Origin: Escherichia phage EF1-1
Reading direction: 5' to 3' (one strand)
Length of the DNA: 64,000 nucleotides
Sequence record: PQ571289
Numbering within the stretch: position 1 is the first letter of the stretch; each line of letters starts with the position of its first letter. Below the pieces are notes generated by a model. The model ran no database searches, had not been told where the DNA came from, and was given only the letters and a program-made list of their open reading frames with translations. The position numbers were made by a program, and so were the translations under genes. Positions 28,677-30,586 of the stretch are shown piece after piece.

Positions 28677-28751
28677 GGCCCTGTAGCTCAATGGGAGAGC
28701 TGTCGGCTCATAACCGATAGGTAGCTGGATCGAAACCAGCCAGGGCCACCA
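28677..28751 (+). tRNA. tRNA-Met (anticodon CAT)
   Basis: hand-folded cloverleaf: acceptor GGCCCTG/CAGGGCC, anticodon loop CTCATAA, T-loop ATCGAAA, CCA encoded. Confidence 0.8.
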
Positions 28752-28753
28752 AC

Positions 28754-28828
28754 GTCTTTATGGTGTAATGGATAGCACAGGAGTCTTCTAAACTCTTAGT
28801 CAAGGTTCGATTCCTTGTAAAGACACCA
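28754..28828 (+). tRNA. tRNA-Arg (anticodon TCT)
   Basis: acceptor GTCTTTA/TAAAGAC, anticodon loop CTTCTAA, T-loop TTCGATT. Confidence 0.8.
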
Positions 28829-29025
28829 GAACATTTTAACATGAATTAGCTCAAGTGATTTGAACCCACTACTGATCATGGTGGCAGAGAATGAGGCAAG
28901 TATGTCAGACATTATAAACAAAGGCCACGGTTATATTAGAAGACATAAATGCTCGAAGAGCACCGTTCGTGGAGAACGGGGGTTGGTGGAGTCACCATTC
29001 ATGGTAAAATGTTTTAAAAAACTAT

Positions 29026-29055
29026 TGACAACAAACATTATTTTATGTTAGATTA
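29026..29055 (+). promoter_or_regulatory. sigma70-like promoter (ctaTTGACA, 18-nt spacer, TAGATT)
   Basis: same motif family. Confidence 0.5.
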
Positions 29056-29062
29056 TAAATAT

Positions 29063-29153
29063 GGAAGGGCAAATCGACGTGGCGACGAAAACGGTCTTGA
29101 AAACCGCCGAGCTTGAAAGAGCCTTGGGAGTTCGACTCTCCCTCCTTCCGCCA
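29063..29153 (+). tRNA. tRNA-Ser (anticodon TGA), type II
   Basis: acceptor GGAAGGG/TCCTTCC, anticodon loop CTTGAAA, long variable arm, T-loop TTCGACT. Confidence 0.75.
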
Positions 29154-29158
29154 GATTA

Positions 29159-29244
29159 GGTAGATTGGTGAAATGGTAGCCACGACAGTTTGCTAAACTG
29201 TAGTCGGAAACGGCGTGTAGGTTCGAGTCCTACATCTACCGCCA
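29159..29244 (+). tRNA. tRNA-Ser (anticodon GCT), type II
   Basis: acceptor GGTAGAT/ATCTACC, anticodon stem ACAGT/ACTGT with loop TTGCTAA, long variable arm. Confidence 0.75.
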
Positions 29245-29369
29245 AGTTGTTTTTAATGTAGCTTGCTACTCTTACTTTAATAGAGTAAACTTTCGGCAGA
29301 TGGCCTCCACCATCTTACCGATACCGCATAGTCAGTAAGGCGAATACTGGCTACTTTAAAAACAATTTT

Positions 29370-29453
29370 GTGAGATTGGCAGAGTGGTCGATTGCGGGGG
29401 ACTGTAAATCCCTTCTGAAAGGCGCGGTGGTTCGAATCCATCATCTCACACCA
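29370..29453 (+). tRNA. tRNA-Tyr (anticodon GTA), type II
   Basis: acceptor GTGAGAT/ATCTCAC, anticodon loop CTGTAAA, T-loop TTCGAAT. Confidence 0.75.
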
Positions 29454-29459
29454 AATTAA

Positions 29460-29545
29460 GATGAGTTGGCTGAATGGTTTAAGCGGCGGACTGTTAATCC
29501 GTGTTCGAAAGAACGATATAGGTTCAAATCCTATACTCATCGCCA
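29460..29545 (+). tRNA. type-II-shaped tRNA with apparent anticodon GTT (assignment uncertain)
   Basis: acceptor GATGAGT/ACTCATC, anticodon stem GCGGA/TCCGT with loop CTGTTAA, long variable arm GTTCGAAAGAAC, T-loop TTCAAAT. Confidence 0.55.
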
Positions 29546-29552
29546 GAATTAT

Positions 29553-29629
29553 GGACTTGTAGAGTTAAGGTAAACCCCCAGTCGCCAAGAGGCTTCTGGA
29601 ATTGCAGGTATCGAATCCTGCCGAGTCCC
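29553..29629 (+). ncRNA. degenerate tRNA-like element
   Basis: good acceptor (GGACTTG/CGAGTCC) and T-arm (GCAGG...CCTGC, 8-nt loop) but no canonical 7-nt anticodon loop; no CCA. Confidence 0.4.
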
Positions 29630-29635
29630 AGCTTT

Positions 29636-29710
29636 GCTCCTATAGTATAATGGCTATTACAACGGTTTTGTAATCCGTGGATCTCTGTTCGATTCAGAGT
29701 GGGAGCACCA
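29636..29710 (+). tRNA. tRNA-Thr (anticodon TGT)
   Basis: acceptor GCTCCTA/TGGGAGC, anticodon loop TTTGTAA, T-loop TTCGATT. Confidence 0.75.
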
Positions 29711-29978
29711 ACACAACATTAAGAGCACTGTGATTGATCGTCGTATCCTGTGCACAAGGTCTGCTCGAAAGACAGTGTTCTTAGTATTGTGTTGATCACA
29801 AAAAGACTCACCTGAAACTTGACCGGAGTAGGGTTGGATGGGGTAAAGAAGAAGCGGATTCTCCCATCGACGTGAGAGTTTTCCAGTGTTGCAAGCGACA
29901 CCCAGGAGATTAATCACAACCGAACGTAGGGCTAGTCACCCAACGGGATACTCGTCACTGTCCCACTCAATAAAACTA

Positions 29979-30008
29979 TTGACAACCAATACTAAAATGT
30001 AGTATAGT
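29979..30008 (+). promoter_or_regulatory. sigma70-like promoter (ctaTTGACA, 18-nt spacer, TATAGT)
   Basis: same motif family, inside the tRNA region. Confidence 0.5.
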
Positions 30009-30019
30009 AAAGATGTAGG

Positions 30020-30093
30020 GCGTTCTTGGTGTAGCGGTAGCATTCCGTCCTTCCAAGTCGGCGGCACGAGTTCGATCCTCGTAGGACGCTCCA
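30020..30093 (+). tRNA. tRNA-Gly (anticodon TCC)
   Basis: acceptor GCGTTCT/AGGACGC, anticodon loop CTTCCAA, T-arm ACGAG-TTCGATC-CTCGT. Confidence 0.7.
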
Positions 30094-30191
30094 AATTATT
30101 TAATAAAGGGTTGCCAGAAAACTTTCTCTTTTACTCATGGTTTTCTCCTTCTCTCACACCTCTTCTGGTTGCCCTTCATTAAATGATTTAT

Positions 30192-30267
30192 TGGTTTGTA
30201 GTGTAGTCCGGTAGCACACGACACTTTGACTGTCGTAGGTTTGGTTCAAATCCAGACAGACCAGCCA
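30192..30267 (+). tRNA. tRNA-Gln (anticodon TTG)
   Basis: acceptor TGGTTTG/CAGACCA (U1:A72), D-stem GTGT/GCAC, anticodon stem CGACA/TGTCG with loop CTTTGAC. Confidence 0.75.
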
Positions 30268-30272
30268 TATAA

Positions 30273-30349
30273 CGGAATTTAGCTCAGTTTGGTAGAGCAT
30301 ACGCTTTGGGAGCGTAGGGTCGCAGGTTCGAATCCTGCAATTCCGACCA
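30273..30349 (+). tRNA. tRNA-Pro (anticodon TGG)
   Basis: acceptor CGGAATT/AATTCCG, anticodon stem TACGC/GCGTA with loop TTTGGGA, T-loop TTCGAAT. Confidence 0.8.
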
Positions 30350-30355
30350 ATTTAA

Positions 30356-30429
30356 TGTTTCGTAGTTCAATGGTAGAACCCACGACTGATAATCGTGAGA
30401 CACAAGTTCGATTCTTGTCGAAACAACCA
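30356..30429 (+). tRNA. tRNA-Ile (anticodon GAT)
   Basis: acceptor TGTTTCG/CGAAACA, anticodon stem CACGA/TCGTG with loop CTGATAA. Confidence 0.75.
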
Positions 30430-30431
30430 GT

Positions 30432-30501
30432 TTCCCGTTAGACTTACAGGATAAGAGTTCCACAGCTTATTGTGATGCTGGTTCGAATCCAGCACGGGAT
30501 A
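30432..30501 (+). ncRNA. degenerate tRNA-like element
   Basis: acceptor TTCCCGT/ACGGGAT and perfect T-arm GCTGG-TTCGAAT-CCAGC, but central region folds as ATAAG/CTTAT stem with a 10-nt loop instead of D and anticodon arms. Confidence 0.4.
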
Positions 30502-30507
30502 CCCAAT

Positions 30508-30586
30508 AGCGGGATAGAGGAGTCTGGTCGTCCTCGCCAGTTTCATATGCTGGAGATCATCGGTTCGAATCCGATTCCCGCCTCCA
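30508..30586 (+). tRNA. tRNA with anticodon CAT (Met, fMet or lysidine-Ile; undetermined)
   Basis: acceptor AGCGGGA/TCCCGCC (A1:C72 mismatch), anticodon stem CCAGT/GCTGG with loop TTCATAT, 11-nt D-loop, T-loop TTCGAAT. Confidence 0.65.

Follow-up and report, generated by a model that had tools for sequence, protein, structure and literature searches.

The tRNA cluster of Escherichia phage EF1-1 raises the question of what such a locus encodes besides tRNAs. The window, i.e. the whole stretch of 64,000 nucleotides analysed here (sequence record PQ571289, one strand, 5' to 3'), holds the cluster at positions 28677-30586, where a preliminary description made from the letters alone had given 13 tRNAs plus two degenerate tRNA-like elements. 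The present analysis indicates that the locus very probably belongs to a virulent coliphage of the phAPEC8 type and is arranged as three units in which 12 decoding tRNAs are interleaved with structured RNAs that do not decode. The cluster as such is already known from public annotation, and it is its non-annotated content that adds moderate value.

The decoding tRNAs

ARAGORN found 11 tRNAs between 28677 and 30586, all on the + strand, with the anticodons CAT, TCT, GCT, GTA, GTT, TGT, TCC, TTG, TGG, GAT and CAT in this order. The identical 11 exceeded the gathering threshold of the Rfam tRNA model RF00005 (50-72 bits against a cut-off of 29, E = 1e-7 to 8e-14) and are canonical tRNAs by both cloverleaf (ARAGORN) and covariance model (Rfam). 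The claim of a phage tRNA cluster was thereby confirmed, and all 11 folds were accepted by the covariance-model scan with the anticodons that had been named for them. With Escherichia phage phAPEC8 (JX561091; Phapecoctavirus, Stephanstirmvirinae) the whole region shares 96.7% identity. The public record of that phage agrees in that the same 11 tRNAs are already annotated in the same order, and the region is found at 80% identity or more in 271 phage records. Metagenome and IMG/VR scans anchored on the second CAT tRNA contributed just a few further variants of the cluster. The Tyr-GTA tRNA and the second CAT tRNA are marked ‘pseudo’ by some annotation pipelines. With the tRNA-Ser(TGA) described below, the right total is 12 decoding tRNAs and two tRNA-like elements; under the earlier count of 13 only 12 had in fact been named. 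The CCA end, said to be encoded by several of the tRNAs, was found on reading the sequence to be encoded by all 12. The coliphage-type cluster also occurs nearly unchanged in records named Campylobacter phage C3, A150 and similar, Pseudomonas phage PsgM04F and Acinetobacter phage ABPW7. The Campylobacter-named records carry an UNVERIFIED mark, and the non-enterobacterial host labels on all of these records are probably wrong or due to contamination.

The twelfth tRNA, Ser(TGA), as read by eye, has a 7-bp acceptor stem, a 7-nt anticodon loop (CUUGAAA), an extra arm GCUU-GAAA-GAGC, a canonical T arm, G73 and CCA. Its D arm is compact: the stem, of 5-6 bp, includes an A-A mismatch, and the loop has 3-5 nt. 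The other arms are tRNA-Ser-like. The best tRNA-clan model at 29063-29149 is that of tRNA-Sec (37.4 bits, where 47 would be needed to reach its gathering score; E = 1.6e-6 in a local search), and the sequence is identical across five Phapecoctavirus loci. The tRNA-Ser1(UGA) of phage T5 has a D arm of similar compact style, with a long stem and a 4-nt loop, and the curated T5 record states that tRNA-Ser1 becomes an effective amber suppressor upon anticodon change. Because the arms are tRNA-Ser-like, the sequence is kept in five loci and T5 Ser1 with its similar D arm is annotated as suppressor-competent, 29063-29153 is accepted, with moderate confidence, as a probable functional, non-canonical tRNA-Ser(UGA). 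The earlier assignment stands in its UGA anticodon, V-arm hairpin, T arm, G73 and CCA, but the gene is called neither by ARAGORN nor by Rfam at its gathering score. A different Ser-UGA allele, called by ARAGORN and matching T5 tRNA-Ser1(UGA), is present in PsgM04F and in phi92-like phages. Two unrelated alleles can occupy this slot in otherwise near-identical phages (L135:2019-2108 in PsgM04F, 29063-29153 in the window), which suggests that phage families exchange tRNA genes in the manner of cassettes. In the sister genus, the phi92-like phage PATM has a non-canonical tRNA of its own (L003:1086-1167, annotated ‘tRNA-Undet’) with an acceptor stem, T arm, CCA and UCU anticodon loop, no normal D arm and a long stretch after the anticodon arm.

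Two tRNAs have the anticodon CAT. The first had been read as Met, of which the anticodon stands, but it resembles the lysidine-bearing tRNA-Ile2: its identity is 75% with the tRNA-Ile2 of E. coli and 61% with the elongator tRNA-Met of that species. It also has C4-G69 and C5-G68, the TilS determinants. This gene is most likely a tRNA-Ile2, for which lysidine modification is predicted. The second CAT tRNA looks initiator-like from its A1xC72 mismatch and U73; it is closest to initiator tRNA, with 71% identity to E. coli tRNA-fMet and 64% to a T5 tRNA annotated ‘initiator tRNA fMet’, in which the mismatch is U1xU72 and position 73 is likewise U. Three consecutive G-C pairs at the anticodon-stem bottom are missing, the stem being CCAGU/GCUGG with 29-41 A-U, 30-40 G-C and 31-39 U-G.

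A probable tRNA-Asn with a long variable arm

The preliminary description had noted a type-II-shaped tRNA reading GTT. Both tools call this gene and the long paired extra arm is present. The variable (V) region of 15 nt consists of GUUC-GAAA-GAAC (4 bp and a GAAA loop) followed by GAU, and has the architecture of class II tRNAs, in which a variable region of 10 nt or more forms a stem-loop. The D stem has 3 bp, the D loop is class-II-like and the gene directly follows that of tRNA-Tyr. The 15-nt anticodon-arm core, by contrast with the body, is identical to that of the E. coli host tRNA-Asn, the sequence of which was verified in 5,425 of 5,426 genomes; the long-arm form was found in none of the E. 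coli genomes searched.

Long GTT tRNAs are also present in phi92-like phages, Vequintavirinae (KpS8, 18-1-2), Klebsiella phage 05F01 and T5-like Salmonella phages (examples are L003:1932-2016, L005:2543-2628, L006:3103-3187 and about 110 IMG/VR loci). A scan of viral contigs with the anticodon-arm 15-mer led to 119 GTT tRNAs across the loci collected; 19 had a length of 81 nt or more, and 13 of the 19 came from viral contigs. A gapped pattern specific for the long arm matched at least 120 loci in viral contigs and 49 stretches in 185,579 species genomes (one genome per species), where many of the matches belong to tRNA arrays with 10-36 genes in 8 kb. In 118 unique long-arm sequences the commonest length of the V region is 15 nt, its stem having 3-5 bp, a GNRA loop (GAAA 54 times) and 3-4 unpaired bases at its 3' side; 114 of them have G73 and 81 have U1-A72. 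The V stems differ yet remain complementary across phages (GUUC/GAAC, GAAC/GUUC, AUCC/GGAU, GAGC/GCUC). In 81% of the family the V stem has 3 bp or more, against 42% of shuffled V regions, and all four V pairs are changed on both sides in a subset of 17 sequences, which was picked for V pairing so that its 100% pairing holds by construction. As judged from these sequences, the long-arm tRNA-Asn is a large, virus-enriched structural class, common in phages, rare in cellular genomes and apparently undescribed; no description of it in phages was found in the searchable literature, which leaves out the older T5 papers. Two body types were seen, one with G1-C72, a class-II-like D arm and a Tyr-like body and the other with U1-A72 and an Asn-like D arm and body, suggesting more than one origin.

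The identity set of E. coli asparaginyl-tRNA synthetase (AsnRS) is the anticodon and G73 (PMC9976931). Since G34-U35-U36 and G73 are all present in the long-arm tRNA of the window, charging by AsnRS is the likeliest outcome. In T5-like phages the locus before RNA3 (see below) holds either a long-arm or a class-I tRNA-Asn, and the two forms look interchangeable.

The tRNA-like element downstream of tRNA-Asn

Two tRNA-like elements (TLE1 and TLE2, Table 1) had been described as keeping acceptor and T arms without a normal anticodon arm, and our folds agree. Neither gives a match to RF00005 even at E<=10 or a call by ARAGORN, and neither has a 7-nt anticodon loop. The term ‘degenerate’ was misleading for TLE1 and remains apt, perhaps, for TLE2.

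In TLE1 the acceptor stem is 7 bp long, the loop of the T arm has 8 nt, and a 4+3-bp hairpin with a 4-nt loop takes the place of the anticodon arm. It is found at 95-100% identity in 87 phage records and is annotated in none; a second allele, equally without annotation, lies in the same gap between Asn and Thr in 39 records of phi92-like phages. The curated T5 genome lists ‘rna3, putative tRNA-like RNA’ directly 3' of tRNA-Asn, and TLE1 and T5 RNA3 have in common the D-region motif UAGAGUUAAG(G)UAAAC, a T loop of 8 nt reading (C/U)AUCGAAU and their general layout. The T5 RNA3 family was defined by this motif together with an 8-nt T loop YAUCRAAU, both of which TLE1 has, and a D-region motif of 15 nt is conserved among the TLE1 alleles. 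When 14 distinct members were aligned, 94.5% of the cells were paired, against 29-44% in controls with slid partners; 11 of 17 pairs were changed on both sides, and the observed covariation score was reached by 0 of 500 shuffles. Three divergent alleles in two virus families thus keep the same architecture through compensatory changes. A covariance model gave 86.5 bits for TLE1 of the window and 88.5 bits for T5 RNA3, both of which are in its training set and so match partly by construction. A search of 137 loci with this model found members only in T5-like phages and Stephanstirmvirinae, the rest scoring about 25 bits or less, which is the background of ordinary tRNAs. One locus at 36.7 bits (L261) was rejected as an ordinary initiator-type tRNA, and L166 together with most of 94 gapped-motif matches in viral contigs proved to be chance matches in coding DNA or to lack the stems.

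TLE1 comes directly after tRNA-Asn in the window (29545, then 29553), in T5, in the T5-like phage Tennessee and in phi92-like phages. It is also retained in PsgM04F and in an IMG/VR relative (L143), in which ARAGORN calls no tRNA-Asn between Tyr and TLE1; in PsgM04F a short open reading frame (ORF) is annotated in the gap between Tyr and TLE1 (L135:2406-2554). TLE1 has no encoded CCA, type A ending in CAGC or AAGT and type B in AATA, whereas T5 RNA3 ends in ACCA; the central hairpins of the two also differ in length and sequence. Since the structure is conserved and covarying, TLE1 is, on comparative evidence, a homolog of T5 RNA3 that is maintained rather than decaying.

TLE2 is a different case. 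It combines an acceptor stem with a canonical 5-bp T stem and 7-nt T loop and has a 4-bp stem with a 5-6-nt loop at the anticodon position. It was seen in Phapecoctavirus only. Its loop varies among near-identical phages (GCUUAU, AUUUAU, ACUUAU, AC-UAU), as does the 3' tail, the apparent CCA of the window being CAUA or CCUA in relatives; one D-stem pair is disrupted in some copies, and there is no covariation among the Phapecoctavirus copies. With the TLE1 model TLE2 scores 23 bits, the level of ordinary tRNAs. Global alignments to 145 phage tRNAs showed that its T arm is shared with a T5-like tRNA-Asn; as a guide to the isotype from which TLE1, T5 RNA3 or TLE2 arose these alignments were uninformative, the scores lying at the shuffled null. 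TLE2 may be a relic or another T5-style tRNA-like RNA.

Structured leader and spacer RNAs

Several of the gaps between the tRNAs are themselves structured (Table 1), with stem-closed folds of much lower energy than shuffled sequences (z = -3.8 to -5.7); a leader and a first spacer (sp1) flank the first tRNA pair. The best documented is spacer sp2, a long closing stem with three hairpins. It occurs in 167 phage records at 73-90% identity, compared with 97-100% for the flanking tRNAs. In the RNAalifold structure five pairs are changed on both sides, in the inner hairpins as well as in the closing stem, one position being AU, CG or GC; the junction sequences are invariant, the hairpin loops variable and the indels not multiples of three. 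A small ORF in sp2 was rejected on account of the non-triplet indels and compensatory changes. With the sp2 covariance model, matches were obtained in phi92-like phages and a T5-like Salmonella phage, at 60 bits in Klebsiella phage 05F01 and at 48 bits in an Avunavirus, and none in T5. Its range thus comprises Stephanstirmvirinae, some Tequintavirus, 05F01 and Avunavirus, in various tRNA contexts, usually after tRNA-Ser and before Tyr or Lys. In T5 itself (L320) there is a stretch of about 95 nt without annotation at 11429-11524, upstream of tRNA-Tyr, which appears stem-closed by eye; other T5-like phages hold sp2 at that position, and the T5 stretch is not detectably homologous to it. The pattern of change indicates that sp2 is a conserved structured RNA in more than one phage family and that, with TLE1/RNA3 at least, it is under structural selection.

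For the leader, 9 of 75 pairs in the alifold structure are compensatory (4 unique sequences, down to 80% identity), and for sp1 15 of 53 (6 unique sequences, down to 68% identity). Spacer sp4 is nearly invariant and sp3 varies too little among relatives for covariation to show, and the downstream region gave none that could be assessed. No credible Rfam match to the leader, sp1, sp2 or sp4 was obtained at E<=10 over 28000-31200. Self-cleaving ribozymes, YrlA/Y-RNA-like RNAs, GOLLD and ROOL found no Rfam support as identities for the spacers, the only YrlA match (22.8 bits) merely overlapping two tRNAs. Neither BLAST nor the sp2 covariance model revealed any spacer of the window to be a homolog of T5 RNAI, RNAIII, RNAIV, RNA1, RNA2 or RNA2H.

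Transcription signals and neighbouring genes

The exact 11-mer ACTATTGACAA has three copies in the 64 kb, all within the cluster (28434-28444, 29021-29031 and 29975-29985), and each accompanies a promoter-like sequence (P1-P3, Table 1); by chance, 2.55 near-matches would be expected in the window. They look like a cluster-specific class of promoters, a prediction from sequence motifs. Downstream of the cluster lies the large terminase according to the phAPEC8 record.

The cluster had been said to sit with RNA repair genes. A gene for an Rnl1-family RNA ligase and an adjoining phosphoesterase-like ORF do exist, possibly forming a tRNA healing and sealing pair with the ORF as the metallophosphoesterase-like member. 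However, the ligase gene is about 5.5 kb upstream of the tRNA cluster and on the opposite strand, so that the link is loose. In relatives, genes for HNH and GIY-YIG homing endonucleases lie between tRNA genes (L003:2869-3228, L132:3831-4244 and L140); there are none in the window. Such endonucleases are a likely means by which tRNA cassettes are exchanged in mosaic fashion.

Table 1. Features of the tRNA region and of the repair-like genes upstream, with positions in the window. Scores are those of the tools named; z, fold z-score.
Feature	Position	Strand	Basis
T4 Rnl1-family RNA ligase	22179-23111	-	Pfam PF09511, E = 5.7e-16
Phosphoesterase-like ORF adjoining the ligase	23113-23664	-	PF12850, E = 1.2e-4, below its cut-off
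P1, promoter-like, TTGACA-N18-TAGGAT with TG, exact motif ACTATTGACAA	28438-28467	+	Motif scan
Leader RNA, about 200 nt, 16-bp terminal stem	28477-28674	+	Fold, z = -5.4
CAT tRNA, Ile2-like (reads AUA)	28677-28751	+	ARAGORN; Rfam 64.5 bits
tRNA-Arg(TCT)	28754-28828	+	ARAGORN; Rfam 66.3 bits
sp1, about 185 nt, terminal stem	28829-29014	+	Fold, z = -3.8
P2, promoter-like, TTGACA-N18-TAGATT with TG, ACTATTGACAA	29025-29054	+	Motif scan
tRNA-Ser(TGA), probable, non-canonical, compact long-stem D arm	29063-29153	+	tRNA-Sec model 37.4 bits, below gathering score 47
tRNA-Ser(GCT)	29159-29244	+	ARAGORN; Rfam 56 bits
sp2, 125 nt, long closing stem and three hairpins	29245-29369	+	Fold, z = -5.4
tRNA-Tyr(GTA)	29370-29453	+	ARAGORN; Rfam 56.3 bits
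tRNA-Asn(GTT), long variable arm	29460-29545	+	ARAGORN; Rfam 62 bits
TLE1, anticodon-less tRNA-like RNA	29553-29629	+	T5 RNA3 homology; covariation; covariance model 86.5 bits
tRNA-Thr(TGT)	29636-29710	+	ARAGORN; Rfam 59.5 bits
sp3, long hairpin at start of spacer (spacer to about 29975)	29711-29792	+	Fold
P3, promoter-like, TTGACA-N18-TATAGT, 11/12 matches, ACTATTGACAA	29979-30008	+	Motif scan
tRNA-Gly(TCC)	30020-30093	+	ARAGORN; Rfam 54 bits
sp4, 95 nt, hairpin-closed	30094-30188	+	Fold, z = -5.7
tRNA-Gln(TTG)	30192-30267	+	ARAGORN; Rfam 54.9 bits
tRNA-Pro(TGG)	30273-30349	+	ARAGORN; Rfam 70.8 bits
tRNA-Ile(GAT)	30356-30429	+	ARAGORN; Rfam 72.2 bits
TLE2, tRNA-like element	30432-30501	+	Fold
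Second CAT tRNA, initiator-like	30508-30586	+	ARAGORN; Rfam 50 bits
Strong intrinsic terminator-like hairpin and T run, ends third unit	30702-30727	+	Motif scan

Codon usage and possible roles in defence

The window has 39% GC, and its ORFs have 30% GC at third codon positions (GC3). A preference for codons ending in A or U had been offered as the rationale of the tRNA set. It holds for the six tRNAs with U at position 34 (U34), which together with tRNA-Ile2 read codons with phage to E. coli usage ratios of 5.1 (AGA), 3.2 (ACA), 2.6 (AUA), 2.5 (GGA), 2.1 (CAA), 1.9 (CCA) and 1.4 (UCA). It does not hold for the tRNAs with G34 (Tyr, Asn, Ile-GAU and Ser-GCU), the codons of which show ratios of 0.4-1.5. 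Because these are not consistently enriched, codon compensation accounts for about half of the set.

For the G34 tRNAs the best available idea, by analogy with published systems, is that they would replace host tRNAs targeted by nucleases. The AriB nuclease of PARIS cleaves host tRNA-Asn, Thr and Lys and also reads the D loop and other parts of the tRNA body (PMC12409363), and phage tRNA-Tyr rescues infection from retron Eco7 (PMC11555353). The cluster resembles the phage counter-tRNA sets (tRNA-Lys, Thr and Asn of T5 against PARIS AriB, phage tRNA-Tyr against the PtuAB of retron Eco7) in having Thr-UGU, Asn-GUU and Tyr-GUA, which are isoacceptors of the known targets of these nucleases; unlike the T5 set acting against PARIS, it has no tRNA-Lys. 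Published escape by counter-tRNAs is due to substitutions in the anticodon stem-loop, whereas the anticodon-arm core of the window tRNA-Asn is host-identical, and any escape would therefore have to come from the remodelled body. An anti-nuclease role of the long arm is a conjecture. It could be extended to a possible, though rather doubtful, scheme in which a distinct class of tRNA-Asn in phages and mobile arrays keeps only the parts read by AsnRS (GUU on a host-identical anticodon arm, and G73) and carries at the anticodon-stem base a class-II-like arm, in which 3-5 bp and a GNRA loop are usual. Both this arm and the remodelled body as a whole would then be a shield against body-reading nucleases, e.g. 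an AriB-type Toprim nuclease cutting at 40/41 by the variable region, with TLE1 or T5 RNA3 as a functional partner such as a decoy.

Proposed explanation and its alternatives

Taking the genes, structures, conservation, covariation and codon statistics as observed, we infer the following course of transcription and processing, aminoacylation identity and anti-defence role for the products of the cluster. Three co-directional transcription units would each start from an identical ACTATTGACAA promoter, the last ending at the intrinsic terminator. They would carry the Ile2-like CAU, Arg-UCU, Ser-UGA, Ser-GCU, Tyr-GUA, Asn-GUU, Thr-UGU, Gly-UCC, Gln-UUG, Pro-UGG, Ile-GAU and initiator-like CAU tRNAs and, between them, the non-decoding RNAs TLE1, TLE2, the 200-nt leader, sp1, sp2 and sp4. 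Host RNase P, together with enzymes of 3' processing, would cleave the polycistronic transcripts at every acceptor/T-arm module, including those of TLE1 and TLE2, and so free the mature tRNAs together with stem-closed stable RNAs, which may be by-products or products in their own right. The U34 tRNAs and tRNA-Ile2 would supply codons used 1.4-5 times more by the 39%-GC phage than by E. coli, while the G34 tRNAs (Tyr, Asn, Ile and Ser-GCU) would most likely be spare parts for translation when anticodon nucleases cleave the host tRNAs. The long-arm tRNA-Asn would keep the AsnRS elements (GUU, G73 and the host-identical anticodon arm) on a remodelled body which could evade nucleases reading the tRNA body.

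Several points weigh against this account. The promoter scan as a whole is not enriched (10 sites against 10.2 in shuffles), and only the shared extended motif is distinctive. The tRNA-Ser(TGA) fails both standard detectors. The covariation of TLE1 draws on only three main lineages and hence on a modest number of independent events, and the spacer structures other than sp2 are alifold-fitted from 4-6 sequences. The tRNA-Asn of T5 at the same locus is of class I with a changed anticodon stem, and the rescue of T5 from PARIS is therefore no test of the long-arm form; it was rejected as functional support for it.

Three alternatives concern the elements individually. The long-arm GTT tRNA might be charged by seryl- or tyrosyl-tRNA synthetase (SerRS, TyrRS), putting Ser or Tyr at AAC/AAU and leading to mistranslation or recoding. 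The window copy has a 3-bp D stem and class-II-like D loop and adjoins a tRNA-Tyr whose anticodon differs by one base, and SerRS ignores the anticodon. The short V stem of 3-5 bp with 3-4 unpaired 3' bases is unlike that of tRNA-Ser. A long variable arm with G73 is a SerRS identity feature (PMC7609411), yet GUU with G73 is the complete published AsnRS set in E. coli (PMC9976931). G73 is kept in 114 of the 118 sequences and U1-A72, which is typical of bacterial tRNA-Asn, in 81, many members (e.g. that of KpS8) have a D arm and acceptor stem like canonical tRNA-Asn, and the same T5-like locus accepts a long-arm or a class-I tRNA-Asn, arguing for interchangeability. Charging by SerRS or TyrRS is thus very unlikely, and AsnRS remains the preferred enzyme.

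The non-decoding RNAs could be devoid of function. TLE1 and TLE2 would then be decaying tRNA pseudogenes, kept because they are recent or because their RNase P sites help the neighbouring tRNAs. Their escape from ARAGORN and from the Rfam tRNA model at E<=10 and the lack of an identifiable isotype of origin would fit, as would the restriction of TLE2 to one genus, its unstable loop, 3' tail and apparent CCA and its broken D-stem pair. For TLE1 such decay is hard to square with three alleles in two virus families holding the architecture by compensatory changes, with the conservation of its odd features (the 8-nt T loop, the hairpin lacking a 7-nt loop) and of the 15-nt D-region motif, with 95-100% identity in 87 records while nearby sp2 falls to 73%, and with its persistence where the adjacent Asn gene is missing; for the pair taken together we consider it improbable. 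The spacers, similarly, might not be RNA genes but hairpins for processing or insulation (e.g. RNase III sites), or features of the DNA itself, be they promoters, terminators or what is left of small ORFs and homing endonuclease sites. This carries somewhat more weight, being a lesser but real possibility: all spacers are closed by long perfect stems of the type cut by RNase III, their ends carry promoters, the equivalent gaps in relatives hold small ORFs and HNH endonuclease genes, and neither in sp3 and sp4 nor in the downstream region is there covariation to be assessed. It accounts poorly for sp2, where a multi-helix fold has compensatory changes in inner hairpins as well as in the closing stem, junctions are invariant with variable loops, indels are not multiples of three and the element recurs in several phage families and different tRNA contexts; the analogous RNAs of T5, moreover, are annotated as stable RNAs. 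A cluster of 12 tRNAs interleaved with structured RNAs is the account we prefer.

Comparison with known systems

The cluster itself is routine. The records of phAPEC8 and other Phapecoctavirus are without annotation of Ser-UGA, TLE1, TLE2 and the spacer RNAs, PsgM04F having the T5-type Ser-UGA allele, and standard pipelines miss or mislabel 4 of the 14 tRNA-shaped genes and all structured spacers in more than 100 coliphages that are candidates for therapy. The tRNA cluster of T4, with the stable RNAs C and D and Rnl1-type tRNA repair genes elsewhere in the genome, is presumably a similar case.

The canonical class-II isotypes are Leu, Ser, Tyr and Sec and exclude Asn (PMC7609411). The GTT tRNA of the window shares with them the base-paired extra arm and 3-bp D stem; in contrast to them it has an Asn anticodon with G73, a shorter arm and 3-4 unpaired 3' bases, and its relatives come for the most part from viral contigs and mobile tRNA arrays, not from housekeeping sets. 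It offers a test case of a tRNA body rebuilt with its aminoacylation identity apparently kept, which bears on work on tRNA-cleaving defence and counter-tRNAs.

The closest parallel is the tRNA region of T5 (NC_005859), in which the tRNAs are likewise interleaved with stem-closed small RNAs and tRNA-like RNAs and several promoters are present. T5 has 24-25 tRNAs and a class-I tRNA-Asn, compared with 12 tRNAs and a long-arm tRNA-Asn in the window. The T5 record lists eight such RNAs (RNA1, RNA2, RNA3, RNAI, RNAIII, RNAIV, RNA2H and RNAX) as ‘stable RNA with unknown functions’ or ‘tRNA-like’. The kind of structured RNA is therefore known and the members in the window are new. The cluster links these elements, hitherto without annotation, to the ‘stable’ and ‘tRNA-like’ RNAs of T5 and adds cross-family covariation for RNA3/TLE1 and sp2.

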